Of a stretch of DNA of 64,000 nucleotides, positions 15,408-33,620 are shown piece by piece; position 1 is the stretch's first letter; each line of letters begins with the position of its first letter. The DNA is taken from the NCBI GenBank assembly GCA_963696385.1, contig CAVOKF010000003.1, forward strand, positions 448,001 to 512,000, in the 5' to 3' direction. Both the position numbers and the translations under genes were made by a program. A model generated the notes under the pieces. That model did not search any database and was not told the origin of the DNA. It saw only the letters and a list, made by a program, of their open reading frames with translations. Source of the stretch: an uncultured delta proteobacterium (lineage in GTDB: Bacteria; Myxococcota_A; Polyangia; Polyangiales; Polyangiaceae).

Positions 15408-15500
15408 GCGCCCAAAGCCGAGCGATGGCCATGAAATGGGCTCAAGCCAGTTGCGCACGGGATGACAGGCCCAACGCGTTCGCAGACTCTCGTACGACCG

Positions 15501-16952: not shown

Positions 16953-16992
16953 TTGCCCCCGTAGCTCAGAGGATAGAGCAGCGGTTTCCTAA
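16953..16992 (+). repeat. attL: 40-bp direct repeat containing the 5' half of tRNA-Arg(CCT)
   Basis: TTGCCCCCGTAGCTCAGAGGATAGAGCAGCGGTTTCCTAA is identical to 33094-33133; identity stops at the end of the anticodon loop. Confidence 0.97.
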
Positions 16993-17185
16993 TTCGGGGC
17001 ATCCGGCGCCCGTCGGGACGCACGAAAGCCTGGGAAAAAAGGCAAATGGTGCGTGTTTGACGGGCGATCAGACAGTGGCGAATAGTGGCGAAACGCGCGA
17101 GATGGGACCGCTTGGTTTGCAGGGCGGGACACTAAAGGACGTTTCGCTGGACGCGCTCTTGGCCGAGCTCGCACGGCGTCGGTGA
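16993..17185 (+). other. Displaced 3' coding segment of the integrase (C-terminus of the excised form)
   Basis: Same frame through att (APVAQRIEQRFP) as the integrase; open to ...LKDVSLDALLAELARRR-stop. Confidence 0.7.
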
Positions 17186-17585
17186 GGTCCCTCGTGGGGA
17201 CTTCACGAAGTGAGGCAATAATGAAGTCCGTCTGAGGGACATCATTCGGCTGGCCGCGTCGTCACGCAAGCGACCATGAAGCTCGCGGAGCTCTACGCCG
17301 AGGAGACGAGCGCCAGTCCTGGGGTCAAAGCGCAATTATTTGATCGCGAACAAGCAATTCGTCCCGGCAAGGCGGCCGTAGCGGAGGTGCACGAGAAAAA
17401 GATGCTGGCTTGTACCGCCAATTGGCTCTCATGATGCCCCCCATCAATTGCGGAGCCATACGCAATGATTCCCGCATGTTAGCGACGATCTGGTCTAGCT
17501 AAGAATTGTAACCGTCGCTGCGCAAAACGGGTGGGAGATTCGAGCTCTTTCGGGGTCGTCCGATTCGGTGCCACTAGGTTCGGTC

Positions 17586-17840
17586 ATGCCCGAACCCGCA
17601 TTACTTCCGTTGCGTGACGCCCTCGTCAGGTATCCAGGCATCTCGCTGGAGACCGCCCGCCGCCTCATACGCGACGGGAAATTACCAGCCGTCCTCATTG
17701 GCCGAATCTATCTGGTCAGTCCGGCCGACGTCGCGAAACTGTTCGCGCCCAAGCTGCGCAATGGACCGGCGCCCCGCAAGCCGCGAGAGAGCGAGACCGC
17801 CAGGGCCGAGCGGCAGTTGACGGAGGCGGGTCTCCGCTGA
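17586..17840 (+). CDS. Excisionase-like helix-turn-helix protein (HTH_17)
   Basis: GISLETARRLIRDGKLPAVLIGRIYLV winged-HTH pattern next to attL. Confidence 0.85.
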   Translation: MPEPALLPLRDALVRYPGISLETARRLIRDGKLPAVLIGRIYLVSPADVAKLFAPKLRNGPAPRKPRESETARAERQLTEAGLR

Positions 17841-17845
17841 CGCAC

Positions 17846-18301
17846 ATGAGTACTCCGCCATCGTTCGTAATCTATTGCGACTCGCGCGAGCAAACTCCGC
17901 CTCCGTTTCCTGATGGTGTCGTACTCGAGCGGGTCACTATGTCCGAGGCGGATTACACGTCGCCGAAGCTACAGGGGATCGGAGTCGTCGAACGCAAATC
18001 CACATCCGACTTCGCGAGCTCGATCACGCACTCGAGAGAGAGATTCGACGACGAGGTCCGGCGACTGAAGGCGTATCGCTGGAAGTGCATCATCGTCGAG
18101 GGGAGCCTCCACGACGTCTATCGATGCACGACCGCGCACCCGCATTCGATCATCGGCTCTATTGCATCGTTCTATGCGCGGGCTGATATCCCGACGATTT
18201 TCGCGGGCAATGCCGCAGGTGCGGGCCGACTCATCGCTGGCATTCTCCGTCGCTGGGAGGAGCGCATATTGGCAGAGCGCGCCGAGAGGGGGGCCGCATG
18301 A
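17846..18301 (+). CDS. ERCC4/XPF-domain nuclease
   Basis: DSREQ, ADY, VVERKSTSDFASSI, IIVEG. Confidence 0.88.
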   Translation: MSTPPSFVIYCDSREQTPPPFPDGVVLERVTMSEADYTSPKLQGIGVVERKSTSDFASSITHSRERFDDEVRRLKAYRWKCIIVEGSLHDVYRCTTAHPHSIIGSIASFYARADIPTIFAGNAAGAGRLIAGILRRWEERILAERAERGAA

Positions 18302-18510
18302 CTCGAATGCTTGGCTCGCCTGAAAATCAAGCGCGCGTATACGCCAGACGCGCCGCTGGCAAACCGCTCGACGATAACGATCTCGCGGTGATCGGCGAGC
18401 TGCCGGACGACCCTTCAGACGGTTGCATATCAGCACTCGAGCTCGGCGACCAGACTCCCGAGGACATCGCCGAAATCGAACGCCTCGTCAAAGAAAAGAT
18501 GGGCGCGTAA
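18298..18510 (+). CDS. Small hypothetical protein
   Basis: ATGA and TAATG overlaps with both neighbours. Confidence 0.6.
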   Translation: MTRMLGSPENQARVYARRAAGKPLDDNDLAVIGELPDDPSDGCISALELGDQTPEDIAEIERLVKEKMGA

Positions 18511-20078
18511 TGGCCAGCATAACGCCGATCGAGAGCAGGCGCATATTGGAATTGGTCGACGGATTTCCGAAGACGGATTCTGGCAATGCCGAAAGGCTTA
18601 TCGCGCTCAGCGGTCGAGAGCTCCGATACGTGCGTACGTGGTCGAAGTGGATCGCCTGGAATGGCAAACATTGGACGCTGGACGAAGGCGCTCCGCACCG
18701 CGCAGCGAAGGCCATGGCCCGCGCGCTCATGAAGCAGGCGCAGCGAATCGATGATCCAGACGCGAGAAGCGCGGCCGTCCGATATTCACTCAAGTGCGAG
18801 GGCAAGGCGTCGATTGAGGCAATGGTGTCCTTGGCTCGTTACGAGCTGGCGGTTGCCATTGGCCACGAAGAGCTCGACGCCGATCCGTGGCTGCTCTGCG
18901 TTCGCAACGGCACAATCGACCTCAAAACGGGTGAGCTTCGGCCGCATCGGCGTGAGGACCTCATCACCAAGATTGCGCCCATTGACTACGACCCGGCCGC
19001 GACATGCAATCGGTTCGAGCGATTCGTATCCGAGATCATGGCGGGCGACGCTGCGCTCGTCACATTCATTCACCGGTTTCTCGGCTACTGCATGACCGGC
19101 GACGTTCGCGAGCACATTCTCGCCTTCTGGCACGGCGAGGGCGGCAACGGCAAAAGCATGCTCGCCGATCTCGTTCTCTTCGTTATGGGCGATTACGCCT
19201 GCAAAGCAGCGCCGGACCTTCTTTTCAAGGGTGAACACTCGGAGCGTCACCCGACCGAGCTTTGCGACTTGTACGGGCGGCGACTCGTCGTTTGCAACGA
19301 GACGACGAGCGGGCGCTCGTGGGACGAGGCGACGGTGAAGGACATCACCGGCGGCGACCGCATTCGAGCGCGGCGCATGCGCGAGGATTTTCGGGAGTTC
19401 AGTCCGAGCCATAAGCTGCTCGTTTTCGGGAACCATCGACCGCGTATCCGATGCGTAGACAAGGCGATGGAGCGACGGCTCCGACTCGTGCCGTTCGCCG
19501 TCAGCTTCATCGGACGTGAGGACAAGGACCTCAAGCAAGCGCTCAAGGCCGAGGGCCCTGGCGTGCTGGCATGGCTCGTCCGTGGATGCCTTCAGTGGCA
19601 GGCCGAGGGCCTTCCCGACGTCGCCGCGGTCCGCGACGCGACGCAAGCCTATCTCCGCGACGAAGACACACTCGGTCAATTTTTCGACGGCGAGTGCGTC
19701 TTCGACCCGACGGCCAAGATCAGCCGCAAGGAGCTCCGAGACCGCTATGTGGCGTGGTGCGACGACCGCGACGAGCGTCCTGTCAGTCCAAAAACGATCG
19801 CGGATGCCATCACAAGGCGCGCCGTCGTCCCGCGCAAGGTTTGGACAGCGAAGGGGCCTCGTGACGGATGGGCGGGAATTCGGCTCGCAAATGAGGCCGA
19901 ACGAACGACCGCTAGCGACATAGTGACGCCTAACGAGGAAATCCCGGTTCAACGCGATCAGAACGTTTCTCGTGAGATAACCCGGGAATTGCCGACTATG
20001 CCCACTAGCTCGCTAGACGGCGACCAAGAGGACTTCGGCGACTACCTCGAGCGCGAAGGAATTGGGGGTGAGGAGTGA
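18510..20078 (+). CDS. P4-family D5-like SF3 helicase with no N-terminal primase domain
   Basis: TDSGNAERL (D5_N), NGTIDLKTGEL, GEGGNGKS, VKDITGGDRIRARRM, RRLRLVPF. Confidence 0.92.
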   Translation: MASITPIESRRILELVDGFPKTDSGNAERLIALSGRELRYVRTWSKWIAWNGKHWTLDEGAPHRAAKAMARALMKQAQRIDDPDARSAAVRYSLKCEGKASIEAMVSLARYELAVAIGHEELDADPWLLCVRNGTIDLKTGELRPHRREDLITKIAPIDYDPAATCNRFERFVSEIMAGDAALVTFIHRFLGYCMTGDVREHILAFWHGEGGNGKSMLADLVLFVMGDYACKAAPDLLFKGEHSERHPTELCDLYGRRLVVCNETTSGRSWDEATVKDITGGDRIRARRMREDFREFSPSHKLLVFGNHRPRIRCVDKAMERRLRLVPFAVSFIGREDKDLKQALKAEGPGVLAWLVRGCLQWQAEGLPDVAAVRDATQAYLRDEDTLGQFFDGECVFDPTAKISRKELRDRYVAWCDDRDERPVSPKTIADAITRRAVVPRKVWTAKGPRDGWAGIRLANEAERTTASDIVTPNEEIPVQRDQNVSREITRELPTMPTSSLDGDQEDFGDYLEREGIGGEE

Positions 20079-20635
20079 CCGCCCCGACCTGCCTTTGGCC
20101 TAGTCCCGGAATGGCAGGCCCCTTCGCTGTTCTCGATATCCCCTGCAAGGACATCGATGCCACAACGGTTCAGCAAACCGTTGCAGACGCTTGTTTTCAG
20201 CGCCTTTCCTCGTCAAAGGACGATATAGCGAATCGTCCTGCGAAACAGCCCGCGGAATCATTGATGATTTTGGCGCTGGCCAACGTACTCGAGCCTGCCC
20301 CGTATCCGCGGCTCAGCGGACCCCTCGGCGGGCGGAAGCGCCGCATGGTGCGGCGACTCGCGACGGCGACCGGCGTGGTGCCGGAGGAAGTCTCCGGTCC
20401 GGACAAGGCTGTTTCACACCGCATGAATCACGGCCGTCGCCGCTTGAGGATTACGCGTTTCCCGATTGGAGGATTACCCCATGAGACGTCGCAAACGACA
20501 TAAGGCCTCTCAGGTGCGCCCTGGCGAGCGCGCGAACAGGGTGCCGCCGCCAATCGAGGTGCCGCTCCGGTTGCCGCCATTGCCCCGCGAGTTTGTCGCC
20601 CTCCGCGCCGACGAGCGCGTTGCAGGCAAGGTCAA

Positions 20636-21181
20636 ATGACACCCGAACAGAGGGTCGACCCGCGGCGGTTTATTCTAACGCCGGAGCGCCGAGCGATCGT
20701 GCTCGCCTCAGCGACTATTCGGGCCGCTGCCGAGTCGATCGGGGTCACACGGGCCACCCTGAGCTCAGCCGTCAACCGCGACGCCGCGCTGGTCGCAGAG
20801 CTCGCGCGCAAGCGCCAGGCCGAGCGCGATGCAGTCCGCGAAGCCGCGCCGCCGAAGCCGCGCAAGCAGCGCGATGCCGACTCGTTCGACAGCCGTCCGG
20901 TCATTCGAGCCGAGCAGATCGAGGGTGCTGTCCTCGCCGCCGCGACGGCCGTTACGGGCGCGCTGCCGGCCGTCGACAGCCGAGGTCCGCGCTGGGCCGG
21001 TGGAGAGCATTGGTCGCGGCTTAGGGCCGCGTTCCACTGCTTGCCGGAGATGGCCCGGCGCGAGGCAATCACTCGCCTCGTCCTCGAGGAAGCCGAGCGC
21101 ATCGAGGCGGATCGCGGCCTCGAGTGGCGCCCCGCCGAACGACACCAGGGCCAAGTGAGGGCGGGGTCACATGATCACTGA
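20636..21181 (+). CDS. HTH-containing hypothetical protein (possible late-gene regulator)
   Basis: IRAAAESIGVTRATLSSAV HTH pattern. Confidence 0.6.
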   Translation: MTPEQRVDPRRFILTPERRAIVLASATIRAAAESIGVTRATLSSAVNRDAALVAELARKRQAERDAVREAAPPKPRKQRDADSFDSRPVIRAEQIEGAVLAAATAVTGALPAVDSRGPRWAGGEHWSRLRAAFHCLPEMARREAITRLVLEEAERIEADRGLEWRPAERHQGQVRAGSHDH

Positions 21182-21668
21182 CCTCTTGACGGACGAGCTG
21201 ACGCAAGCGCACCTCGCGCTGCTTTTGCACCAGCTTTGGGATGAGTACTTCGAGCCCAGGCCGCGGCCTTTGCTGTTGCCGGTGATCGATGAGGGACTTG
21301 TGGAGTGCGCCAACATCCAGCGCAAGGGCACGATCTTCGTGATCACGTTCGACCGGACGACGCTGGATCTCGGTGTGGGCCGGCGGTGGCTGGTCGACGT
21401 TGCTCTGCATGAGCTCACGCATGTGCCGAGCTATCCCGAGCGCGCCTCGCACGGGCCGGGCTTTTACGCCGAGTGCTGCCGTCTTTCGCCGCTCATAGGC
21501 CTCGAGTTTTTGCCGTGCGAGGACACGGTCCACGAGTGGCCCCACAACATGCGACCCGATGGCTTTTACGAGGGGACTTATTTCGACGCGGACAGGATCG
21601 GATCGGCGTGGCTTGTCGACGTTCGCGATGCGTTCGCGTCGGTGGCCGCGCTCGAGGTGGACCCATGA
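21171..21668 (+). CDS. SprT-like zinc metalloprotease
   Basis: LHELTH followed by SHGPGFYAEC. Confidence 0.75.
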   Translation: MITDLLTDELTQAHLALLLHQLWDEYFEPRPRPLLLPVIDEGLVECANIQRKGTIFVITFDRTTLDLGVGRRWLVDVALHELTHVPSYPERASHGPGFYAECCRLSPLIGLEFLPCEDTVHEWPHNMRPDGFYEGTYFDADRIGSAWLVDVRDAFASVAALEVDP

Positions 21669-21757
21669 CTGCGCTCGATCATGGCAGCAATCATCCCGAC
21701 CGTGAACACGGCCAGACCCATGATGGCAAGGCCAACGATGTAGGTGTACTCGCCCAT
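21578..21757 (-). CDS. 59-aa single-TM membrane peptide (not in ORF track)
   Basis: RBS AGGAG; MGEYTYIVGLAIMGLAVFTVGMIAAMIERS...; TAA at 21580-21578. Confidence 0.5.
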   Translation of the reverse strand: MGEYTYIVGLAIMGLAVFTVGMIAAMIERSHGSTSSAATDANASRTSTSHADPILSASK

Positions 21758-21759
21758 GT

Positions 21760-21969
21760 TCAGCTCCTGCTCCTGGTTCGCTCAATGATGGCGCCGAAAC
21801 CGGCAAAAAACAACCCCAAACCAAGAACGACCACGGTCCACCTCCACGACGGTAAGCCGGCCGCGATTGTCTTTTCTAGCACGCCCAGGGCCGCGACGAG
21901 CACACCAGCCTCCCGCAGAAAGTCGCCCGACATCTCTGCCAAGCCTTTAGGCGCCCCCATCGGGGCCAT
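21760..21969 (-). CDS. Small 2-TM membrane protein
   Basis: FLREAGVLVAALGVLE...WTVVVLGLGLFFAGFGAIIER; start uncertain. Confidence 0.55.
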   Translation of the reverse strand: MAPMGAPKGLAEMSGDFLREAGVLVAALGVLEKTIAAGLPSWRWTVVVLGLGLFFAGFGAIIERTRSRS

Positions 21970-21993
21970 TCCTAGCACATCCGTGGGGACTCC

Positions 21994-22566
21994 ATGGCAA
22001 TAAGGAGTGGACACGGCAACGGCGCCGGCGTGCCCCGGATCGAGGTCCTGCCTCCCGACGAGCTGCCGGATCCGGCTCCGATACCGGACGAGAGCGGTCC
22101 GATTGTGCGCCGCTCGAACGGCACGTTCGCCGATGGGGAGTCCGCCAGGCGGGCCGGTCGCAAAGGTGGCCAGCGCACGCAGCTATTCAGCCGCATCCTT
22201 CGTTCGTTGGGTTTGGCCGAGCTCTCGGCTGACCACGCGTTCTACGCCTACGAGGTGGCCGGCAAAGACTTTGCCGATGCCTACATTTCCCGCCTCACGA
22301 CCATGTTTGGCGAGTGCGGCGAGGGACCCGCCAGCATCGTGAAGACCGCCGGGATTCAGCTCGCATCGAGTCGTTACCTCTACGACCAGGGCAAGCTGAC
22401 GGGCGACGCCGAGCTCCTGGGCCAAGCGTCCAAGATGGGCAACGACCATCGCCAGAACATGCTTGCGAGTTACGAGCTCGCCGCACGGGAAGCTCAGGCG
22501 CGCGAGGCCTCCGTTCCAGACGGCGTCGATGCCCACTGGTGGTCGGACAAGAAGGGCAAGCGATGA
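21994..22566 (+). CDS. Putative terminase small subunit
   Basis: Directly upstream of TerL with ATGA overlap; RRSNGTF..ARRAGRKGG basic motif, then helical body. Call is mainly positional. Confidence 0.5.
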   Translation: MAIRSGHGNGAGVPRIEVLPPDELPDPAPIPDESGPIVRRSNGTFADGESARRAGRKGGQRTQLFSRILRSLGLAELSADHAFYAYEVAGKDFADAYISRLTTMFGECGEGPASIVKTAGIQLASSRYLYDQGKLTGDAELLGQASKMGNDHRQNMLASYELAAREAQAREASVPDGVDAHWWSDKKGKR

Positions 22567-24323
22567 AGTTCACCGAATTCACCGACGACATCGGCCTGAG
22601 CCTCACGCCGGCACAACGTGTACTCTGCAAGGTTTCGTTTGATGGGACCGACCCTTGTGCGCTTGAGGGCGCGGAGCGGGAGCTTGCGCGAGTTCTGTTC
22701 GGCGAAGTCGATACGGTGCCCGCGTTGGCCCGGCGCACGATCGTGCTGACCCTTGGCCGAGGAAGCGGAAAGACGACCATCGCAGCGGCGTACGGTCTCT
22801 ATCGAATGGTGACCGCGGACCTCTCGAGGTGCGGGCCCGGTGACATTCCGCACATGATCGCGGTCGCCCCGACGACGCGAACGGCAAAGCTCGTCGTTGG
22901 CATGGCCCAGGAGCTCACGCAGTGGTCGAAGGCATTGCGTCGGCGCGTCGAATCGGAGACAAAAGAAGGATTCATTCTTCGACGTCCCGACGGCAAGCGC
23001 GTTGCTTTCTCGGCGTTCGCGGCGAGCCGTGGCGGCGCATCCGCCCGCGGGCTCTCGGTCCTCTCGTTCGTGCTCGACGAGAGTGAATTTTTTCAGAGCG
23101 ATGCGGAGTTCGTGGTCACGGACCGTGACGTCTACGGCGCGATCGTCCCCCGTCTGATGGCGGCCGGCGCGGGCGTACTGATCTCGACGCCGTGGCCCGT
23201 GCCCACCATGACGGCCGAACTGCGCGAGAAGAATTTCGGCGCCCCCTCGACGGCTCTGTGCGCAGTGGGTCCGACGCTCGTCATGCGCCCCGGCGACGAA
23301 ACTATCGAGTCGCTGGTCGCCGCCGAGCGAGAGCGCGACCCAGACAACGCGGCGCGCGAGTTCGATTGCGACGCGTCCGCGACCAGCGGCTCGAGCACTC
23401 TCTTTACCGCCGAGATGATCCGCGCATGCGTCGACATGAACCTGGCGCAGCCGTCGCCACGCGTCGGAAGCTATCACCCGAGTTTCGGTTGCGACGTCGC
23501 GTTCGTGCGCGACTCGAGCACCCTCGTCGGGTCGGTCGACAAGGAAGGCGTCGTCGAGGTGCAAACGATTCTTGAAAAGAGGCCAGAGAAAGGCCAGCCA
23601 CTTCGCCCAAAAGAGGTCGTCGACGACTTCGCGAAAGTGATTACTGATTATGGCGCGGTGAGTGTTTGGGGTGATATTCACTATAAGGAATCGGTCCGCG
23701 AACATCTCGAACCGTATCAGATCGAGTTTTGCGACGTGCCCGCTGGCGCAAACGGCAAACAGGAGACGTACCTGCACGCCCGCAAGATGCTAAGCGAGGG
23801 CCGCGTCCGCCTCCCGAACAATCCGCGCTTTCTTGCTCAGTTGAGAAGCATCGTCAGCAAGCCGATGTCCGGCGGAGGTTTGCAGATCAGCGCACCGCGC
23901 CGCGCTGGACTCGCACACGGCGACATCGTCTCGGCGTTCGTGGCGTCGCTCTGGGCTGTCAAACAGGGAGAGCAGCCGGACTGGTTGCGAGCGATGGTCG
24001 CCCTGGATCAGCGGAACGGCGTGTTGTTCGACGGCGGCAATTCTAAGATGTGCAATGAGCGATACGTGAATGCGTTGGCCGCGATTATCGGGTGGCGGAA
24101 GCGCCATGGCAATCTGCGAAAGGATACGCACACGCTCGACGTGGGCAACGACGGTACATATACATTGGTACACGCCAATTATCTGAACGGTGTAGCGCGG
24201 TGGCGTTCCAAGGACCGTTTCGGCAACGTGGTCTTCGATCCGCATTGCGAGCCGGGCTTCAAACATCAGATGGCTTGGATCTGGACAGAACTTTACTCGA
24301 ATCGTGGAGGCGAAGCGCCATGA
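22563..24323 (+). CDS. Terminase large subunit with C-terminal extension
   Basis: LTPAQ, Walker A LGRGSGKTT, RGLS..Walker B FVLDESEF, ISTP, RNase-H-like GCDVAFVRD and HGDIVSA. Confidence 0.9.
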   Translation: MKFTEFTDDIGLSLTPAQRVLCKVSFDGTDPCALEGAERELARVLFGEVDTVPALARRTIVLTLGRGSGKTTIAAAYGLYRMVTADLSRCGPGDIPHMIAVAPTTRTAKLVVGMAQELTQWSKALRRRVESETKEGFILRRPDGKRVAFSAFAASRGGASARGLSVLSFVLDESEFFQSDAEFVVTDRDVYGAIVPRLMAAGAGVLISTPWPVPTMTAELREKNFGAPSTALCAVGPTLVMRPGDETIESLVAAERERDPDNAAREFDCDASATSGSSTLFTAEMIRACVDMNLAQPSPRVGSYHPSFGCDVAFVRDSSTLVGSVDKEGVVEVQTILEKRPEKGQPLRPKEVVDDFAKVITDYGAVSVWGDIHYKESVREHLEPYQIEFCDVPAGANGKQETYLHARKMLSEGRVRLPNNPRFLAQLRSIVSKPMSGGGLQISAPRRAGLAHGDIVSAFVASLWAVKQGEQPDWLRAMVALDQRNGVLFDGGNSKMCNERYVNALAAIIGWRKRHGNLRKDTHTLDVGNDGTYTLVHANYLNGVARWRSKDRFGNVVFDPHCEPGFKHQMAWIWTELYSNRGGEAP

Positions 24324-24655
24324 GAACTCGTATCGGAAGGCGCCAACCGTACATCCCCGCGCGACGGCCGATCGGGGCGGACCGCTTCGACGGTCTCATT
24401 CCGGAATTGATCCAGAACGTGATGCAAACGGACCTCGCCGAGGTACGGGGGATCCGTGGTGAGCTCGAAGAATCGGAGGAGCACAACTTCCACTTCGAAT
24501 CGTGGCCGGACGGTCGAATGGCGGTCAGCACGATGGCCAAGAACCCCGAGGTCGCCAAGTGGCATACAAAGCTCAAGGGCGACATCGAGTTCACCGACAA
24601 CGCAAGCAACTTTTTTAGGGCTTGTGCATACAGAATACGGGCGCGCAACTCATAG
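24320..24655 (+). CDS. Hypothetical protein resembling the TerL C-terminal extension
   Basis: ATGA overlap with TerL; shared DG..VAxWxxK..GxxxF pattern. Confidence 0.6.
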   Translation: MRTRIGRRQPYIPARRPIGADRFDGLIPELIQNVMQTDLAEVRGIRGELEESEEHNFHFESWPDGRMAVSTMAKNPEVAKWHTKLKGDIEFTDNASNFFRACAYRIRARNS

Positions 24656-24681
24656 GCGATTTACCATTATCGAGGGTTCAC

Positions 24682-26097: not shown

Positions 26098-26102
26098 ACG
26101 CC

Positions 26103-26837
26103 ATGGGACAAAATATGAGATACGAATCGACCTCGCGAGACCCCGCACCCAACCCCGAATACGAGAGGGGCGTCGCAGACGTTCGTCGCAAAGAGCTTGC
26201 GCGGATCGGTTACGAGATCCCCGCGAACGCGTCGCCAGCCTACGTCGACGGGGTCTACGGGGTCGCCGTCAAGAAGGGGCAGGTTCGCTCGGACGCCGCG
26301 CCGCGATTTTTGGATCCGCTCGATCTCGTCTTCGCTGGAGGCGTCGAGGCGCGCTCGGACGCGATGCTGACCGAGAGCGGAGTAGAGACGAACACCGCTA
26401 CTCAAGAGGAGACGCTCGCCTCAGCCGACGAACAGCGACAGGCCGGATTCGCCCAAATGCAGGCAAAGTTCGAACGCGGCCTCGAAAATGCGACCTATGG
26501 GTATCGTCCGGCACGGGGGCACGACGGCTCGTTTCCCGGGGGGTCAAGGGGCAATAACGCGAGCACGCCACCGGGCGATCCGGAGTGGGGTCAGCGCGCT
26601 CGGGAGTCGGCTCCGCGAGTTCCGCGCGAGCAAACAGAGCACGGGCGCTCTGCCTTCGGTGGAGGCAACGAGGGCTCTTTCGAGGGATCGTTCGGCGGGG
26701 GGATGGCCACGCCTGACGTCTTCGGCGAGGGCGACTCGACGACGGCCGACGCTCGCGACGCCATGATCGCGCGCGCGCGCGACGCGTGGCGAACCCCGCA
26801 AGGCCCGCGGGCGATGGGTCGCACGCGAGGTGCATGA
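26103..26837 (+). CDS. Hypothetical protein, phage scaffold (DUF2213 C-terminus)-like
   Basis: SPAYVDGVY, RSDA twice, ADARDAMIARARDAWR. Confidence 0.55.
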   Translation: MGQNMRYESTSRDPAPNPEYERGVADVRRKELARIGYEIPANASPAYVDGVYGVAVKKGQVRSDAAPRFLDPLDLVFAGGVEARSDAMLTESGVETNTATQEETLASADEQRQAGFAQMQAKFERGLENATYGYRPARGHDGSFPGGSRGNNASTPPGDPEWGQRARESAPRVPREQTEHGRSAFGGGNEGSFEGSFGGGMATPDVFGEGDSTTADARDAMIARARDAWRTPQGPRAMGRTRGA

Positions 26838-26840
26838 GCC

Positions 26841-27164
26841 ATGACGTCAGCCGTGTTTGACCGTCGTGACGCCTTGACCGGGACACCAGTTGTGCCGGAG
26901 CCGACGGCGCCGATGCAAACCGACGATGAATTTCGCGCGACCGCGGAGACCAAGCGGGATTCCCTCACGTTTCGCAAGGACGCCGCCGACGTCCTCCGAT
27001 CGCTCAAGGCGCTGCGCCCAGGCGACAGGCGAAATCTGTACGCATGGCTATTTTGGAATGAGGTTGCAGACCTAGGACCCAATGCCGAAATCACGTTCGG
27101 CGGAATGCGTATCCGAACCGGCGCCAACACGCTCGCCGGGGCACCTGTGGAGAAAAACAAATGA
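26841..27164 (+). CDS. Hypothetical protein
   Basis: RBS GAGG; in operon. Confidence 0.6.
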   Translation: MTSAVFDRRDALTGTPVVPEPTAPMQTDDEFRATAETKRDSLTFRKDAADVLRSLKALRPGDRRNLYAWLFWNEVADLGPNAEITFGGMRIRTGANTLAGAPVEKNK

Positions 27165-27337
27165 GCCAAGAATTCGTATGTTCAATCGACGCGACCGTGC
27201 CAGCCCCTACCGCGGAAGCCCAGGTCAAACTCGAGGTCGCCGCGTCCGTTGACGCCTCGGTGGATCTCGCTCCGGCCACACCGGCCGGGTTACGATGGAA
27301 CGAATCAAATTGGGATGAAGCGACGTGGGGGGTCTAG
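27161..27337 (+). CDS. 58-aa protein with W-x4-W-x4-W tail (not in ORF track)
   Basis: MSQEFVCSIDATV...LRWNESNWDEATWGV-stop; ATGA overlap; fills the gap between neighbours. Confidence 0.6.
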   Translation: MSQEFVCSIDATVPAPTAEAQVKLEVAASVDASVDLAPATPAGLRWNESNWDEATWGV

Positions 27338-27339
27338 CC

Positions 27340-28605
27340 ATGTCCGGCCAACCCCCAATCGGGACCTGGGCGACGACGACCGACTACCCTCCGGGTTCGA
27401 GCCCGTGGAGCGGTAATCCCACGAAGATCCAGCCAACCCAAACGTATTGGATTCCGGCGACCGGCGTGAGCGCCCCCGAACACAATTACATCATCAACCA
27501 GCTCTACGCGGAACTTGCCGCCGTCGAAGCCGCGGGCGGATCGGCGCTCGTTGCGCAGAACTGGCAATCTGTCATCGCCGCGGGGCCGGCGAACGCGAAC
27601 GCCCTCGCGTGGAATCCAATATTGAGCAGCGGCGGCGCGTTCATCACCGTCGAAAAGAACTCTGGGCCGCTCTACCAGTTCGTATACAACAGCGGCGCGG
27701 ACCTCGTTTGGACGACGCTTGGCTCGACATTCAACGTGAACTCGAGCTCGCCGAACGTTACGGCACTCGCGTGCGGTCCCGCGCAAGGCGTAACATGGGC
27801 GAGTTTTATCAATTCGAGCAACGTCGGATATCTATGGTCGTGCACCGTCGGCGGTTCTACGGACGCGCTGCTAGGTACAGGTAATGTATCCAACATGTAT
27901 CTAGCCGCTGCCGCAACGTCCGGCGTCGACTGGGGCGTTCTCGCTATCGCATCCGGCACGTCCGGCGATTCAGCGCTGTACTTCCTGACCGCCACCGGCG
28001 CGACGGGCTTGTCGACCGGCCTCACCGAAGCGCAATGGGCCGTTGCGTCGAACGGGTCGCTCGTCGTCGCAGTTGGCACCGACCGGATCGTGTATTCCAT
28101 ATCGTCCTCCAGCGGAACGTCCGGCACCGTCTCAACAGCGAATATCGCCTCCGTGCTCGGTACCGATCTGCCAATCTCCATGGCGTACGGCACGAGTACC
28201 ACGTTCCCCTCCGGCGCGTTCATCCTTTGCTGCTCCACAACGACAAGCGGACAGCGTCGCTATTACGCGAGTCAAACCGGTACCGGCGCGACTTGGGTTT
28301 CGCTCGGCGTCGCGACGACCTCGGCGGCGGCTGAAGTCTCGCAAATCGTCGCGTGCGGAAGCCTTTGGCTCGGACTCGTATCGCTGGCCGGCGGGGTCGC
28401 TGGAGTGATCATGGCCCCGAACGGCATCGACTTCGGTGGATCGGCCACGGGCAACTGGCAATCGACCCAGACTCGCGTGGTCCCGAGCGGATCCGCGGAA
28501 CCGATGATCGCCGCTGGGCCCACCCAGGCCGCGATTGCGATGGCAGATGGCGGCCCAACGTTCCGGTTCAGCCAGATCAGCGGGCCCGGCACGGCGTTGA
28601 CGTGA
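27340..28605 (+). CDS. Tail-fibre/receptor-binding-like structural protein
   Basis: N-terminal W..PTKIQP..W.P..SAPEHNYIINQL anchor-like segment; Ser/Thr/Gly-rich beta-strand body. Confidence 0.55.
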   Translation: MSGQPPIGTWATTTDYPPGSSPWSGNPTKIQPTQTYWIPATGVSAPEHNYIINQLYAELAAVEAAGGSALVAQNWQSVIAAGPANANALAWNPILSSGGAFITVEKNSGPLYQFVYNSGADLVWTTLGSTFNVNSSSPNVTALACGPAQGVTWASFINSSNVGYLWSCTVGGSTDALLGTGNVSNMYLAAAATSGVDWGVLAIASGTSGDSALYFLTATGATGLSTGLTEAQWAVASNGSLVVAVGTDRIVYSISSSSGTSGTVSTANIASVLGTDLPISMAYGTSTTFPSGAFILCCSTTTSGQRRYYASQTGTGATWVSLGVATTSAAAEVSQIVACGSLWLGLVSLAGGVAGVIMAPNGIDFGGSATGNWQSTQTRVVPSGSAEPMIAAGPTQAAIAMADGGPTFRFSQISGPGTALT

Positions 28606-28637
28606 CCATGGCGTCGCACCACCAGCAGGAGTACGCA

Positions 28638-29087
28638 ATGCGCAGCAGCAGGTTTTTTCCTCTCCTCATCCTCAGCGCTCTCGTCATCACGGCGGCCGTC
28701 GCGCGAATCGCAAGCGCGCAAGTCGTCCTACTCAACAATTTCCAGGGCCCGGAGGTCGTCGGACCCTTCACCACTGTTGGCTCCGGCAACTACCAGGTTG
28801 CCCAATTCACCGTCCTCCCGAATCACAATGTATACGTGAGTATCGGGTGCGACGCCATCGACACCGTAAACACCGCGGCCAATTCCTGGCGCCGAGACGT
28901 CTACGTGTTCGATAATAGCGGCGGCATTGCGCCAGCCGTCTTCCAGACACCCGAAAACTACACGACGAGCATCGCCATATCTAGCAATTACGGAACCCCG
29001 GGGGGCAATGCGCTAACGCTCGATTTTGAGACGACGGCATCGGACGCGCTTCGCGTCATATGTGTACTGTACTCGTTCTCGAATTGA
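28638..29087 (+). CDS. Secreted beta-rich protein
   Basis: RBS AGGAG; signal peptide ending ASA-Q. Confidence 0.7.
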   Translation: MRSSRFFPLLILSALVITAAVARIASAQVVLLNNFQGPEVVGPFTTVGSGNYQVAQFTVLPNHNVYVSIGCDAIDTVNTAANSWRRDVYVFDNSGGIAPAVFQTPENYTTSIAISSNYGTPGGNALTLDFETTASDALRVICVLYSFSN

Positions 29088-29452
29088 CATGGCCTCGCAC
29101 CGTCCAATTGGCCTTTCGCGTTGGGAGCTTGAGCACGGCGCTCAGCCCGAGGCTTGCCCGATTCCTGAGAGGGTCGAGGGATTTTGGCTCGGACCTGCGG
29201 GAGCGTGGCGCGATAGGGCGATAGCGGCGGAAGCGAAGTTGCTAGAGTTACTTCGCAGTCTTCGCAGCGCGTAAACAGGCCACTGCGAAAAATCGTATAT
29301 CGGTCACTTGACGGGATTGTCGATAGGCAGTATATCTATTCACGTCGACGGGACGCTAAGCCGAGGACGACGCAAGGCCTGCCAAAGTGGCCACGGAGCG
29401 AGAGCAGTCACGGCTCAGAAAGTGACGGTCCAGCTGGGCGACAGCCGAGCCA

Positions 29453-29496
29453 GAAACCCCGAGCGGCGAAAGCTCCCGGGGTTTCGCCCATTTTCT
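29453..29496. terminator. Hairpin terminator, possibly bidirectional
   Basis: GAAACCCCG/CGGGGTTTC stem followed by CCCATTTTCT, between convergent units. Confidence 0.55.
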
Positions 29497-29968
29497 ACTG
29501 TTCTCCTGGCCCCCTTTTCGGAGCGCTGAGCGCCTGATTCTTGGCCGCGACAATAAGGCCGGCGAGCTCGGCCAGGCCGTCATTGCCTGCTTGGCCTGAG
29601 AATTTGACTCCACTCCACTCGATGTTCGGCGTCATATTTTTTGTGAACCCCTCGCGATGAGGGCGCCCACCGACCACGATAGTTCCGTCGCTTCCGTGAC
29701 GCGCGAAAGATACCTCGACCTGATACCAGCGCGTGCTGTCCGCGTCGCGCGCCGCGTCTTGGTTGAGCGTTACCGATAGCACGATACCGGCGGATGGCTG
29801 CTTGCTGATCTCGTATGTATGAGACCCGGCGACGGCTTCTTCGAGAGCCGTGATTAGGTCTTTGATGCCATTTACTGGCCATCGTACGTCCAGATTTAGT
29901 TCGCCTTGGACGTTCACACTTTCAGTTCCGTCTAGGATTTTTACTGCGCGCTCGATGTCGTACGCCAC
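29495..29968 (-). CDS. Hypothetical accessory protein
   Basis: 157-aa ORF with RBS GGAGG and protein-like composition. Confidence 0.7.
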   Translation of the reverse strand: MAYDIERAVKILDGTESVNVQGELNLDVRWPVNGIKDLITALEEAVAGSHTYEISKQPSAGIVLSVTLNQDAARDADSTRWYQVEVSFARHGSDGTIVVGGRPHREGFTKNMTPNIEWSGVKFSGQAGNDGLAELAGLIVAAKNQALSAPKRGPGEQ

Positions 29969-29983
29969 CTGCCCCTCCGTTCG

Positions 29984-30259
29984 CTAAGTCGCTTCCCCAG
30001 CGTGTTGCTTCCTGCACGGCCCCATGGAGAACGATAGGCATTTGTCGCAATACTGCGGCCCGTTCGTTGGCTGCCGAGATCCGGTGCTCTTGGCTTCTGC
30101 GCGCTCCGCAGACTCCGCCTCTTGCACGAGTGCACCGACCACGGCATCGGCGATCTTGATCGCCCTCCGCGCGATTCCCGTTGCGTCGCCGTTCGGGTCT
30201 AACGCGGATCCGGACACGGCGCGGAGAATCAATTCTGTACGAAGTTGATGTTCGTTCAT
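29984..30259 (-). CDS. Small hypothetical protein with CxxC..C..H tail
   Basis: RBS GGAGG; YCDKCLSFSMGPCRKQH. Confidence 0.6.
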   Translation of the reverse strand: MNEHQLRTELILRAVSGSALDPNGDATGIARRAIKIADAVVGALVQEAESAERAEAKSTGSRQPTNGPQYCDKCLSFSMGPCRKQHAGEAT

Positions 30260-30287
30260 GCTTCCCCTCCGTTCTGACCCCGTATCT

Positions 30288-30494
30288 TTACGGTTTTGGG
30301 TTCATATCGTCCCATTTTTTGATGAGTGGTTTGACTGTTTTCGTAGCTCTGCGTCGGAGCCAGTCGGCAACTTCAACGTCATCGATGCCGGCGACCCGCG
30401 CGAGCGCACCCAGTCTCTCCACGATCCATTGCAGGTCGGCCTTCGTAAGCTTCACTTCGTCATCCACCATGGCTGGCCCCTCCGTTCGCGCCAT
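30288..30494 (-). CDS. Small hypothetical protein (possible regulator)
   Basis: First gene of the leftward unit at the divergence point. Confidence 0.5.
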   Translation of the reverse strand: MARTEGPAMVDDEVKLTKADLQWIVERLGALARVAGIDDVEVADWLRRRATKTVKPLIKKWDDMNPKP

Positions 30495-30539
30495 GGTCTC
30501 ACCGCCTGACGGGTGGTCAACGAAAAGTTTGCGAGTGGC

Positions 30540-30568
30540 TTGCGCTCACGCGCTCACGCGCTTATGCT
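30540..30568 (+). promoter_or_regulatory. Sigma70-type promoter with GCGCTCAC tandem repeats
   Basis: TTGCGC-17 bp-TATGCT; GTG start follows the -10 after a 6-nt gap. Confidence 0.55.
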
Positions 30569-30574
30569 CTCATC

Positions 30575-30859
30575 GTGGCTGCAAAGAAGAAGGAGATCAA
30601 AGTGCAAATCACCGAACGCGCGCTGGTTCAACGCATCAACCGCAAGCTCGCGCCGAAGGCCGAAGACCCCCGTTCCCATAAACGATTGTGCAAGTCGAAG
30701 GGCTTTTACGACGGGCCCTTGAAGCACTTCAACGAGCTCGGGGAATTCTACGTCCTCGACCTAGGCACGAACACGGTCGAGCGCACCGACGTCGACATCG
30801 TGGAGCTCGCGAAGGAGCTCAACGCACTCGCCCCGTGGGAAGCGCTCGCAAGCAACTGA
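30575..30859 (+). CDS. Hypothetical phage-type protein
   Basis: ITERALVQRINRKLA...LAKELNALAPWE; follows the promoter. Confidence 0.7.
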   Translation: MAAKKKEIKVQITERALVQRINRKLAPKAEDPRSHKRLCKSKGFYDGPLKHFNELGEFYVLDLGTNTVERTDVDIVELAKELNALAPWEALASN

Positions 30860-30931
30860 CACGATAGCGCCCCCCGCGCCGCGCTAACGGCCGGGAGGCA
30901 TGGCCCAACCCCGAACGAACCGGAGTCGAAC

Positions 30932-31144
30932 ATGCAACCATTAGCCCATTTTCAAGCAGACGAACCGCCTACGCGCCCGACGGCGCATATCCCCGCATCC
31001 GCCCTCATCGCCTTCCGCCGCATCGGTCGGCTTGCGGAGCTGGCCAGCGAGCGGCTTTCGACCGACCCCGATGCGGACGCGATCCTCGAGGCCATCGGCG
31101 AAATGGAACGCATCCGCGAGATTTGCGCGGAGGTGGGCCGATGA
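30932..31144 (+). CDS. Small hypothetical protein
   Basis: RBS GGAG; in operon. Confidence 0.5.
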   Translation: MQPLAHFQADEPPTRPTAHIPASALIAFRRIGRLAELASERLSTDPDADAILEAIGEMERIREICAEVGR

Positions 31145-31443
31145 CGACCCGCCTAGCCCTCATCTTCGCCGCTGCCCTCGTTGGCTGCGGCGGCGCCGCC
31201 GAGTCCGAGCCGTCGCCCCCCGCGGTCGACTGCACGCTGTTTCCTGACGAGACGACCGAAGCGGAAACGAACCTGCCTCTATACATTACCGACGCCGGCG
31301 TGAACCTCGATGGGGCAGCATTGCCCGACGGGTGGGCGTTCGTACCGCCATTCGCCGAACCGGGTAACCTCGATAACTGCGGGTGCGGAGTATACGGGCC
31401 CGCGCCGTATTTTCTCGTCCTCGGCCTCTGCGGGAGCCACTGA
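31141..31443 (+). CDS. Small lipoprotein
   Basis: MTTRLALIFAAALVGC lipobox; RBS GGAGG. Confidence 0.65.
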   Translation: MTTRLALIFAAALVGCGGAAESEPSPPAVDCTLFPDETTEAETNLPLYITDAGVNLDGAALPDGWAFVPPFAEPGNLDNCGCGVYGPAPYFLVLGLCGSH

Positions 31444-31445
31444 CA

Positions 31446-31672
31446 TGAGCGCCCGACCGAACCACCATCGCGACGCTGCCGTCATGGCGACCATGCAGGC
31501 GAGATTCCGCGTCGACAACGCCGTCAAAATCTACGGCGCCCGCGTCGCCAAAGACGCAAACGCACGCGTCGCGATGACGCTGCTAGACATTCTCGATCCC
31601 ATGTTGCGCGCCATCGAGGGGCTATTGCACGAGCCTCTCGATCTCAGCGCCGCGCCCACCGAAGAGCCGTAA
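31446..31672 (+). CDS. Small hypothetical protein
   Basis: MSARPNHH... directly follows the lipoprotein stop. Confidence 0.45.
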
Positions 31673-31718
31673 CCGTAACCGAAAGGCCGAAACCGGGGCT
31701 TGCCCCGGTCCACGCGTT

Positions 31719-33527
31719 ATGCGCGTGCTGACGAGGCCGAACATGGGACGAGCGCTTTCCGGCACGGTCGAATGGCGAGGCACCCCGCCGCGGTGGTGGG
31801 CCCGCATCACGGTCCGCACCGAAGACGGCGGAACACGCCGAGTTTGGGTCGACCTCGAACGGCCGGACCTACGCGACACGCCCGACGACAAGCGGACGGC
31901 GAAACGGCTGGCCCTCAAGCGCGCCAAGCTCGCCGCACGCAAAACGTACGTCGGGGTCGAGCGGGCCGCGGCGCCCAGGGTCACGCTGGCCGAGCTCGAA
32001 GAACGGTGGTTCGCGTTGCTCGACAACGATCCGGACCTCAAGCCTGCGACCGTCGGCCGATACAAGGCGAGTTGGACCGGCATCCTTGCAAAGCTGGGCA
32101 AGCGCCCCGTGGCCGACCTGACGCCACCGATTCTGCGCACGTGGGTCCTAGAGCAACGCGCGGAGCGGTCCGTGTCGACTGTCCGCAACGACGTCAACGC
32201 TCTGACGCGGTGCTTCAAGGACGCGATCTCGCAGCGATGGGTCGCGCTGACGTCCAACCCAATGAAGGACGACTATCTCCGTAGCGCCGTCCCTTCGATG
32301 CAAATTCCCGAGGCCGACGAGATCGTACAGTGGTCGCGCGCCGAGCTCGAACGTCTACTCGCTTCGCCGCTCTCCGATCTGCACTTCGGGATGCTGCTCG
32401 TCAGTGTGACGACCGGCCTACGCGACGGCGAGCTTCACGGCTTGCGGTTCGCGGACGACGGCGCCGACGCGAAGTACCCCGACGTGCGCCGCCTGTACGT
32501 GCTCCGGCAAGCGCTCATGCCGCGCGACGCGAAGACCGAGGCATTCGGACCACCGAAAAGTAAATGGGGGAAACGCAAGGTGCCACTGCATTCCGCCGCT
32601 GCGGCATGGATCGATTGGTGGAAGGCCGAGGGGTGGGGGGCGTATGTCGGGCGCCAGCCCGAGGGCAGCGATTTCGTGTTCCCCAACGAGGCCGGCGCCG
32701 TTTGGCGCCCGCGCGCCGCGGAGCTCGTTCGCGACCTTCTCGCGGCGGCGGGCCTGCCCACCGCGTTCAAACTGACCGACGGCGAGACGGCGGATTTCAC
32801 TTGGCATGCGACACGGCGCACGTTCGCCTCCCTGCTCGCGGATGCCGGCGTGTCGGGCGAGACTTTGGACTACCTGCTCGGGCAGGCGCCGCACACCACG
32901 CGCGGCCGCCACTACCAAGCGCCCCCCATGACCGAGCTAGCGCGTGCCGTGGCCCTGCTCACCGTCGCTTTGCCATCGCGCCCAGGCGTGCCATCTTGCC
33001 ACCCTTCACGCCCGCCCCAATCGTCCCGTGAATCGTCCCAAGCCACCGAGGACCCACCCGCGACACACAAGAAAGCGCAATCATTCAGCACACTTGCCCC
33101 CGTAGCTCAGAGGATAGAGCAGCGGTTTCCTAAACCGTTGGCCGGACGTTCGAATCGTCTCGGGGGCGCCTTAGAAATCATTGGTGATTTTGCCTCCTGC
33201 ATAGTGCGACCCGCACTAAGACCCGCACCAAAATCCGCACTAAGACCAGCGGTTATGGTCCCCCCCGGAAATCGCGGTGGTTTGCAGGGTGATCCCGTCG
33301 ACCAAACTGTCCTCCAAACCGATGGTCGCGACCGCCGCTTGAAGTGTGGCGAGCGTCTGCGCTGTGTAGTGTTGCTGGGTTACGCCCGATCCCGCGTGCC
33401 CCATCAGGCGCTTGATGGTGCTCTCGGCAACACCCGCCTCGTTGAGCCACGTGGCGAAGCTGCGACGCGTCGCGTGCGCGGTGTACGGATGCCCCTCGTA
33501 GACGTCCGGCAGGCCCGCTGCGCGTAG
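31719..33527 (+). CDS. int: Tyrosine integrase; integrated form reads through attR and the tRNA
   Basis: Arm-binding-like N-terminus, GLRDGEL, PKS, WHATRR, LLGQ, RGRHY; no stop before att. Confidence 0.92.
   Translation: MRVLTRPNMGRALSGTVEWRGTPPRWWARITVRTEDGGTRRVWVDLERPDLRDTPDDKRTAKRLALKRAKLAARKTYVGVERAAAPRVTLAELEERWFALLDNDPDLKPATVGRYKASWTGILAKLGKRPVADLTPPILRTWVLEQRAERSVSTVRNDVNALTRCFKDAISQRWVALTSNPMKDDYLRSAVPSMQIPEADEIVQWSRAELERLLASPLSDLHFGMLLVSVTTGLRDGELHGLRFADDGADAKYPDVRRLYVLRQALMPRDAKTEAFGPPKSKWGKRKVPLHSAAAAWIDWWKAEGWGAYVGRQPEGSDFVFPNEAGAVWRPRAAELVRDLLAAAGLPTAFKLTDGETADFTWHATRRTFASLLADAGVSGETLDYLLGQAPHTTRGRHYQAPPMTELARAVALLTVALPSRPGVPSCHPSRPPQSSRESSQATEDPPATHKKAQSFSTLAPVAQRIEQRFPKPLAGRSNRLGGALEIIGDFASCIVRPALRPAPKSALRPAVMVPPGNRGGLQGDPVDQTVLQTDGRDRRLKCGERLRCVVLLGYARSRVPHQALDGALGNTRLVEPRGEAATRRVRGVRMPLVDVRQARCA
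33096..33168 (+). tRNA. tRNA-Arg (anticodon CCT); CCA not encoded
   Basis: Acceptor GCCCCCG/CGGGGGC, D-arm GCTC/GAGC, anticodon arm GCGGT-TTCCTAA-ACCGT, T-arm GGACG-TTCGAAT-CGTCT. Confidence 0.97.
33208..33243 (+). repeat. Three 12-bp tandem repeats (putative integrase arm sites)
   Basis: GACCCGCACTAA, GACCCGCACCAA, AATCCGCACTAA just 3' of the tRNA. Confidence 0.7.
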
Positions 33528-33620
33528 GTCCGCGCGCAGCATCAGGGCCATGTCCGGGCGCCACGGTTCGCCCTTGTCGTTGGGAAACAGGCAGCGCCAC
33601 CCACTCCTCGGCCACCGCAT
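33240..33620 (-). pseudogene. Tyrosine integrase C-terminal fragment (second element)
   Basis: LFPNDKGEPWRP, AHATRRSFAT, LMGHA, QQHY; N-terminal portion missing. Confidence 0.88.

Follow-up and report, generated by a model that had tools for sequence, protein, structure and literature searches.

Scaffold-type redirection of capsid assembly is known from CpmB of the Staphylococcus aureus pathogenicity islands (SaPI) and from Sid of P4, and P4-like satellites carry Sid, Psu and Delta as capsid-size and regulatory genes. A further kind of satellite, the capsid-forming phage-inducible chromosomal island (cfPICI), has been described (Alqurainy et al., preprint 10.1101/2022.09.08.507074; de Sousa et al., 2023, PMC10085698), and as far as the main text of the latter study goes, TerL is among the core components that separate cfPICI from phage-inducible chromosomal islands (PICI), and the cfPICI model requires a capsid, a portal and a head-tail adaptor. 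The same text reports satellites mainly from Proteobacteria and Firmicutes, and the string "Myxococc" is absent from it; our literature search found no described satellite of Myxococcota, and in a 2026 preprint on myxobacterial viruses the word "satellite" occurs only in the references. Here we describe an integrated element of 16,181 bp, measured repeat to repeat (16953-33133), in a stretch of 64,000 nucleotides (nt) of contig CAVOKF010000003.1 (positions 448,001 to 512,000; assembly GCA_963696385.1, an uncultured delta proteobacterium of the Polyangiaceae), which is called the window below and to which the coordinates refer. The reading that we tentatively favour, with a confidence somewhat short of even, is that this DNA is a phage satellite that depends on a helper and belongs to an undescribed family, so far known from a single genus of soil myxobacteria. 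The comparisons below point to a putative family of satellite-like elements that carry a terminase, encode a novel protein next to the motor and have a virion module that is modular and partly reduced.

The element is flanked by perfect 40-nt direct repeats, the left and right attachment sites (attL and attR), which correspond to the 5′ part of tRNA-Arg(CCT) through the anticodon loop. An intact tRNA-Arg(CCT), predicted by ARAGORN and scoring 64.7 bits against Rfam, encloses the right repeat; the Rfam scan gave nothing beyond tRNA. When the left flank was searched in 31 genomes of the same genus, a match at 87% was obtained in G003, where both flanks are contiguous across one intact tRNA-Arg(CCT), with identities of 86.6% on the left (14094-16992) and 95.9% on the right (33089-33589). 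Because this site is empty, the insertion and its ends are real, and the element is polymorphic for presence and absence among congeners. The tallies of left flanks and of TerL relatives include genomes marked unpublished (G010, G320), and no specific claim is built on these. In 1-kb bins the GC content of the element is 0.59-0.68, mostly under the 0.62-0.72 of the remaining window. As in an Islander-type genomic island, there is a tyrosine integrase, the direct repeat is a tDNA fragment displaced by the insertion, and an intact tRNA has been regenerated. The principal features are as follows, with protein lengths in amino acids (aa).

16953..16992, plus strand: attL, displaced 5′ part of tRNA-Arg(CCT), 40-nt perfect direct repeat with an empty site in G003
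17568..17840, plus strand: AlpA/excisionase-like helix-turn-helix (HTH) protein, 90 aa (Pfam HTH_17 2.8e-6; phrog_66 1.5e-4)
17846..18301, plus strand: ERCC4/XPF-type nuclease, 151 aa (Pfam ERCC4 8.6e-13; phrog_3490 4.2e-13)
18423..20078, plus strand: P4/D5-type replicative helicase, 551 aa (D5_N 2.8e-35; DUF5906 7.7e-11; TIGR01613 4e-86)
21994..22566, plus strand: o190, protein at the TerS position, 190 aa, upstream of TerL and overlapping it by ATGA
22563..24323, plus strand: TerL, 586 aa (phrog_2 1.1e-16; phrog_9 1.1e-8)
24682..26097, plus strand: o491, 471 aa, at the portal position, of a family kept 3′ of TerL, with no detectable portal or HK97 fold
26094..26837, plus strand: o247, 247 aa, rich in A/G/R/E, at the scaffold position, matching relatives by phmmer and blastp
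26841..27164, plus strand: o107, 107 aa, no family, homologue in the sibling element E2
27340..28605, plus strand: o426, 421 aa, fibre-like lead from alignments, composition and Atlas clusters
31719..33527, plus strand: tyrosine integrase (phrog_1 3.6e-43; Pfam Phage_integrase 4.7e-7)
33094..33133, plus strand: attR core within the intact tRNA-Arg(CCT) at 33096-33170, from the repeat and the tRNA prediction

The element stands outside the PICI model because it has an intact TerL of its own. In an alignment of seven TerLs, Gly, Arg and Lys of Walker A (GRxSGKT), Glu of Walker B, and D311, D371, H452 and D454 are invariant, and a weak match to the nuclease domain of a Thermus-phage TerL (5m1f/5tge, E 0.02) agrees with the nuclease residues; TerL is apparently intact, its ATPase and nuclease motif residues being kept. 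The preceding gene, o190, has no profile match in Pfam, PHROGs or NCBIfam, nor in Pfam again at E up to 0.5. Homologues of o190 were found by tblastn upstream of TerL in nine related loci, adjacency being read from coordinates (E2/L029, L012, L014, L016, L018, L031, L032, L034, and Rctr16k at 30% identity).

The gene that follows TerL encodes o491, which by position is the candidate portal equivalent, yet sequence and fold searches recognise no portal in it. Searched exhaustively with a profile, 1.84 billion cluster representatives yielded 109 o491-like clusters, and neither Pfam nor PHROGs matches the protein; by these searches o491 is the founder of a predicted protein family that is unannotated. 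Its profile matches eight of the 383 genomes of the taxonomic family, seven of them in the same genus. An o491-like gene lies directly 3′ of TerL in all eight loci that are readable on both sides (the window element itself, E1, together with E2, G006:C6, G016:C273, G016:C560, G016:C470, G019:C12 and G021:C22), one of them with a small intervening open reading frame (ORF). Moreover, in four loci (G006:C6, G016:C470, G016:C578 and G021:C22) the next gene after the o491-like one is a DUF2213/phrog_530 head-maturation protease (E 2e-47 to 7e-65). When 46 of the 109 family representatives were compared with Pfam, there was no portal family and nothing at its cut-off, two sub-threshold matches (NikA-like 0.0072, DUF6255 0.0012) being at chance level.

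Other approaches to o491 added little. A word-index homologue search returned three proteins including o491 itself, pattern scans of metagenome, genome and viral contigs gave no relatives, tblastn against 50,697 phage records gave no match, and the ESM Atlas gave no usable one. An AlphaFold2 model built from an 11-sequence alignment is fair, with a predicted local distance difference test (pLDDT) of 79 and a predicted template modelling score of 0.50. Foldseek found no match to this model in the PDB at E<=0.001, VIA-align over 48,161 chains gave at best a designed helical repeat protein (Z 5.4, root-mean-square deviation (rmsd) 3.2 Å over 78 residues), pdb_via gave at best the KaiA C-terminal domain (Z 6.0, rmsd 3.8 Å over 96 residues), and the best match in BFVD was to Prim_Pol proteins (E 0.026). 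A primase was one candidate; the weak NrS-1/Prim_Pol matches cover the C-terminal helix bundle only (Z 4.5, rmsd 3.5 Å over 80 residues), and across 55 sequences of the family no acidic position reaches 90% conservation, for which reason this enzyme reading was rejected. Comparison by hhalign of the 55-sequence profile with three recognisable portals gave a probability below 1%, comparison with one head-morphogenesis protein gave no similarity, and PDB sequence-profile searches gave nothing relevant. In about half of the o491 family the C-terminus consists of a linker that is disordered, followed by the conserved motif AAxxGxVxxGxLL and a tail rich in Lys, an arrangement that may be likened to the docking peptides of scaffold or cargo proteins. 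The distant half of the family has no such end and finishes in G-x-R-x-R-x-(W/Y/F), presumably resembling the winged-helix ends of primase-associated domains; the family may hold two functional subtypes.

The proteins encoded next to o491 bear on the same question. o247 aligns only with the region C-terminal to the DUF2213 domain of the relatives' proteases (phmmer 1.1e-7 and 1.5e-7; also blastp). Because o491 follows TerL, the protease follows o491-like genes and o247 matches the post-protease part, the family appears to be linked to head assembly, and it would be closer to capsid-forming PICIs than an earlier note on this DNA had thought. In o426, A, S, G and T make up 50% of residues; conservation across five relatives is confined to the first ~75 aa, the remainder being variable, with lengths of 237-429 aa. 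A homologue in G016:C578 has Asp-box-like motifs and a Pfam BNR match of 2.2e-4, below cut-off, and the nearest Atlas clusters, which are leads only (0.75-0.86), are a viral hypothetical, a WD40/BNR-like, a long-tail-fibre and a receptor-binding-propeller one. The AlphaFold2 model of o426 is unusable (pLDDT 31), a homologue search returned only o426 itself, and no phage record matched; an o426-like gene lies 3′ of the protease in G016:C470 and G016:C578. The pattern is unlike that of a coat protein, and o426 is probably a fibre or receptor-binding-like protein, an insecure assignment to be taken as a lead only.

Pfam and PHROGs were each searched with 24 proteins of the window, and NCBIfam with 24 window proteins and five proteins of relatives; five genes of the element have a clear family: the HTH/excisionase, the ERCC4 nuclease, the P4/D5 helicase, TerL and the tyrosine integrase. 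The HTH protein scores 27.9 bits against HTH_17, whose cut-off is 27, and its match to TIGR01764 (5.6e-6) is under that model's cut-off. The alignment of the helicase with phrog_2478 (2.7e-120) covers profile positions 405-845 of 854 only; because the PHROG alignments span only the C-terminal half of primase-helicase profiles, the helicase is taken to lack an N-terminal primase domain. The catalytic part of the integrase ends ahead of attR and the frame runs on across attR and the tRNA to 33527, giving 602 aa in the integrated state and a predicted 535 aa in the circular form, whose junction was computed. ATGA or GTGA overlaps occur at five gene junctions, and no frameshift was seen in the large genes.

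Much of what the earlier note had said of the element is borne out by these results. Its intact att repeats and discrete element of about 16 kb accord with the perfect 40-bp repeats and the empty site in G003, its full TerL with the phrog_2 match and the residues invariant across seven TerLs, and its integrase, excisionase-like HTH, ERCC4 nuclease and D5 helicase with the profile matches; the tight gene coupling was found again in the ATGA/GTGA overlaps checked at the five junctions, and "no visible frameshifts" holds for the large genes. Two boundaries had to be moved: the TerL start from 22314 to the ATG at 22563, which overlaps o190 by ATGA, and the integrase end, the frame continuing through attR and the tRNA to 33527. 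The labels "TerS", "scaffold-like" and "tail-fibre-like" have no significant profile match behind them and are kept here as positional or tentative names.

Of the 41 related genomes examined, 11 have relatives of TerL, and all of these but one belong to the same genus; several genomes hold two to five TerL matches each. The element is a member of a family of like-sized elements, so far of one genus of soil myxobacteria. Three relatives that lie between repeats are of 16,299, 16,243 and 15,582 bp: the sibling E2, the G019:C12 element bounded by a 24-bp repeat of a tRNA-Glu 3′ end (16,243 bp), and the G019:C23 element bounded by a 20-bp repeat inside the integrase 3′ end (15,582 bp). E2 lies on the same contig as the window element, ~383 kb away (G000:C3:64601-80899, 16,299 bp), and has at its ends 44-bp repeats derived from the 3′ part of tRNA-Gly(CCC); the TerL-like matches of the host genome are E1 and E2 only. 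The two are mosaics of each other, with segments of 74-96% nt identity. Protein identity between them is 27% for TerL, 58-59% for o491, 81-82% for o247, 88-89% for o107 and 36-40% for o426; the replication module of E2 differs in having a phrog_906-type helicase-primase homologue, and its TerL is of another lineage. At the nt level o247 and o107 are ~80% identical, and the mosaic gives clear signs of modular recombination between the co-resident E1 and E2. Ratios of nonsynonymous to synonymous substitution rates (dN/dS) between the two are 0.37 for o491, 0.21 for o247, 0.22 for o107, 0.43 for o426, 0.33 for o181 and 0.38 for o190; o176 gives 0.71 in an uncertain frame. These genes of the element are real and its late genes are under purifying selection, dN/dS being 0.21-0.43 in six genes.

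The late regions of other relatives are diverse. A baseplate-hub-like gene (phrog_196 2e-53) and a Dit-like gene are carried by L014, further Dit-like genes (phrog_817/PF21821) by L034 (G021:C22), L035 (G019:C12) and L044 (G016:C578), and a tape-measure-like protein (phrog_8462 6.5e-41) by L035. These four loci have partial tail-tip modules on 16-kb elements, with no recognisable tail tube or coat. L016 encodes a 443-aa protein matching major-head and head-maturation-protease families, and L018 a phrog_328 head-maturation protease (a 466-aa protein) and a head decoration protein. In L018 (region G005:C2:335039-338917) TerL is in three pieces in different frames, as in a decaying copy. A weakly recognisable portal (phrog_156) follows a related TerL in the IMG/VR contig L056 and in G019:C4 (L017). 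L012 (G014:C267:1-16835) has two TerL genes of 80% aa identity, 15.4 kb apart with an integrase between them, as though two related elements had inserted in tandem at a single att site; it is also a subtype without an o491 gene, TerL being followed by 169- and 245-aa proteins. A 247-aa protein of L014 (L014:10253-10996) has sub-threshold Pfam matches to ATLF (1.7e-4) and Peptidase_M90 (9e-3) and is possibly a zinc peptidase cargo. The 341-aa post-protease protein of L034 was tried as a coat candidate and rejected, with no PDB match and no similarity to the T1-like coat.

How does this locus compare with the systems described so far? With cfPICI, as their published model presents them, it shares the order of integrase, AlpA-type regulator, primase/helicase, TerS-position gene and TerL, and a size class (median 14 kb against 16.2 kb here); its relatives carry head proteases, and the tail and holin genes forbidden in that model have no profile match in the window, though o426 is fibre-like by weak leads and relatives carry Dit-like, hub-like and tape-measure-like genes. 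It differs from the cfPICI model in that capsid, portal, adaptor/connector and protease were not detected in the window, and in having a new post-TerL family, a fibre-like gene and an integrase frame that spans att. Indeed, no family for capsid, portal, adaptor, tail tube, sheath, holin or endolysin was found in the window in Pfam, PHROGs or NCBIfam, and prohead protease and head-tail adaptor/connector have no profile match among the window ORFs, the small ORFs o107, o82 and o73 being family-less. The statement in the earlier note that there are no recognisable capsid, portal or lysis genes is true, as non-detection, in every library tried. Hence the element appears to fit the SatelliteFinder layout but neither the PICI nor, on present evidence and as far as the main text of the model's source describes it, the cfPICI definition. 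The earlier note had also held that the combination of genes fits none of the known classes; this stands with regard to the element's own TerL and the lack of a detectable capsid, portal or adaptor, but its novelty is softer than was supposed, as relatives on the same backbone carry head and tail genes. Its further suggestions, that helper heads are used and a receptor-binding protein is brought along, stay conjectures. The family seems most like a very divergent, variably reduced analogue of cfPICI.

With PICI/SaPI and P4 the element has in common site-specific integration at a tRNA gene and a presumed dependence on a helper, and with P4 in particular a P4-alpha-type helicase (TIGR01613 4e-86); by analogy, scaffold-type capsid redirection is possible as well. 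It differs from PICI and P4 in TerL, which they do not carry, and in a helicase without a primase domain, and no homologues of Sid, Psu, Delta or Cpm were found among the 24 window proteins in PHROGs and Pfam. Among 50,697 phage records the only TerL relative is "Virus Rctr16k" (KX853514.1), 16,739 bp from an enrichment-culture metagenome, on which no paper was found; its TerL is 37.8% identical to that of the window (3e-77), and its gene content comprises integrase and replication genes, a TerS-like gene and TerL, together with a head protease and a tail protein of tape-measure-like type. A TerS-position protein, a ribbon-helix-helix protein and the size class are common to both, and the integrases of L011 and L014 share 49% identity with that of Rctr16k. 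This record differs in having no homologues of o491, o247 and o426, its TerL being followed by a 197-aa protein, a phrog_328 head protease and the tape-measure-like tail protein. Homologues of the DUF2213/phrog_530 protease occur in 1,372 phage records, and in the T1-like Escherichia phage haarsle (NC_049828.1) the order is TerS, TerL, portal, head morphogenesis, protease and coat; the window differs from it in the missing protease domain and coat homologue, and o491 is unlike its portal or its head-morphogenesis protein. In Mx8, attP lies inside the int coding sequence and integration alters the int 3′ end, as reported in the available text of the sources (PMC6070905, PMC4383910). The window integrase, whose frame crosses attR with a predicted change from 535 to 602 aa, resembles this in arrangement and not by demonstrated homology. 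Of the 20 phage records matched by the window integrase at E<=1e-5, none has a Myxococcus phage as its organism name, and kinship with the Mx8 integrase was not demonstrable.

The other features of the element have no clear family and are listed here; its genes without a family include a dozen small ORFs.

18298..18510, plus strand: 70-aa ORF with ATGA overlap, homologue in E2
20075..22003, plus strand: three to four ORFs without an assigned function, of 142, 181 and 165/176 aa (overlapping frames), common to E2 at 74-96% nt identity
28611..29087, plus strand: ~150-aa protein with a signal-peptide-like N-terminus (by eye), weakly similar protein at the same position in E2
29026..31672, both strands: lower-GC accessory/regulatory region with small family-less ORFs
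29495-29968, 29984-30259 and 30288-30494, minus strand: small ORFs, no family
30575-30859 and 30932-31144, plus strand: small ORFs, no family
31123-31443, plus strand: lipoprotein-like ORF with Cys after "LVG" (by eye), no family

A Pfam rescan of 20 window proteins at E up to 0.5 gave the family-less genes no match, and PADLOC found defence cargo in none of 19 window proteins (0/19). The proteins at 28611-29087 and 31123-31443 are possible surface-exclusion or moron genes. The three minus-strand ORFs (157, 91 and 68 aa; 29495-30494) are in the lowest-GC part, opposite to all other genes, and could be an immunity or regulatory unit.

As a helper-dependent satellite, the element would be excised by its integrase and excisionase on induction by a helper phage and replicate with its own nuclease and helicase, and its own TerS and TerL would recognise and package its DNA. 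The block after TerL would serve virion assembly, with o491 acting at the portal or core position beside the motor, o247 as a scaffold remnant and o426 as a fibre or receptor-binding-like protein; through this late module the element would act on head assembly and perhaps on adsorption, and coat protein, tail and lysis functions would be supplied by the helper phage. Several points weigh against this proposal. The missing capsid, portal and lysis genes are a matter of non-detection and their absence is not established; o491, with its fair model and no known fold, or o426 could be a divergent structural protein; the window order of TerS (190 aa), TerL (586 aa) and proteins of 471, 247, 107 and 421 aa mimics a portal-scaffold-coat module; and the L016 protein suggests that some members of the family make capsids of their own. 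No helper prophage was seen in the host genome by matches to Phage_capsid (PF05065) or Phage_portal (PF04860); DUF2213 (PF09979) had no match there either, but its control matched nowhere, so that search is uninformative. Neither a circular form nor an excision joint nor RNA was observed, the DNA being low-depth contigs from four soil runs of one study, and a two-copy homodimer prediction for o491 gave no verdict, which counts against any virion reading. That o190 acts as TerS we infer from its kept position, with no profile support. That elements so unlike in gene content are of nearly constant size (15.6-16.3 kb) suggests that capsid capacity limits what can be packaged, as judged from four measured elements of two genomes, which are few and not independent. 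A bolder proposal, in which these elements are a new satellite class locked to ~16 kb, bringing its own terminase, a novel non-portal-like protein at the motor position, a scaffold fragment and a receptor-binding fibre, and taking coat, tail shaft and lysis from a myxophage, seems to us doubtful.

If o491 were a divergent portal, o247 a scaffold and o426 or another ORF the coat, the element would be a capsid-forming satellite, an analogue of cfPICI that steals only tails and lysis. This is possible, though we think it rather unlikely. The order and sizes of the genes from TerS onward fit such a module; o491-like genes sit between TerL and the head-maturation protease in four loci, and T1-like phages place the same protease after portal and head morphogenesis and before the coat; L016 and L018 match head-maturation protease families and L016 also a major-head one. 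Firmicutes cfPICI are reported, in the main text of their description, to merge capsid and protease, and their median size of 14 kb is near (PMC10085698). However, the o491 model matches no portal or HK97 chain, hhalign against the three portals stays under 1%, the PDB sequence-profile searches are without relevant match, the composition, variable C-terminal part and Asp-box homologue of o426 fit fibres and not a coat, and no head-tail adaptor or connector was found. The ORFs after TerL could also be the structural and lysis proteins, too divergent to recognise, of an autonomous minimal temperate phage of ~16 kb. Tailed phages of 11-19 kb exist, the integration, replication and packaging modules are complete, tape-measure-, Dit- and baseplate-hub-like genes are spread over L035, L014, L034, L044 and Rctr16k, and Rctr16k was deposited as a virus. 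Yet there is only ~5 kb of candidate structural coding after TerL; the searches gave no gene for a tube, sheath, tape measure, Dit or lysis, though several are recognisable in relatives; the protease is missing even in both the window element and E2; and late genes vary widely among equal-sized relatives, a pattern more in keeping with accessory modules for hijacking than with a virion set that is essential. We regard such a phage as improbable, and give no more credence to a dead or decaying prophage or satellite remnant, or to an integrative element whose terminase-like gene has a role other than encapsidation. A remnant would be consistent with the lack of a visible excision product or circle (in low-depth contigs only), with no helper being seen in the genome, with the TerL of L018 (G005) in three pieces and with the lack of a family for most ORFs, but against it stand the perfect 40-bp repeats, the intactness of the integrase and of the TerL motifs, the translational coupling of genes, the dN/dS of 0.21-0.43 against a diverged sibling, the polymorphic presence of the element in congeners, the two to five TerL matches found in each of several genomes and the tandem copies in G014.

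If the bolder proposal of a size-locked class were true, a new satellite class would re-program the packaging specificity, capsid size and host range of a helper virion, and its relatives would swap different partial head and tail-tip modules onto the same backbone. Small-capsid transducing particles are already on record in myxobacteria and offer a possible comparison for the element family: Mx alpha of M. xanthus forms, in the available text of its description, tail-less particles of ~35 nm that are too small for its 80-kb unit (PMC6070905). For helper-dependent satellites more generally, a TerL-bearing family of fixed size that is capsid-less, or has a cryptic capsid, would extend the known ways in which satellites exploit helper virions, and late regions that mix head and tail-tip pieces would show how such elements are assembled. 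The o491 family, with 109 clusters, a place beside the packaging motor and no known fold, is a concrete structural target. Myxobacteria are social predators with few known phages, and such elements may matter for gene flow among them.

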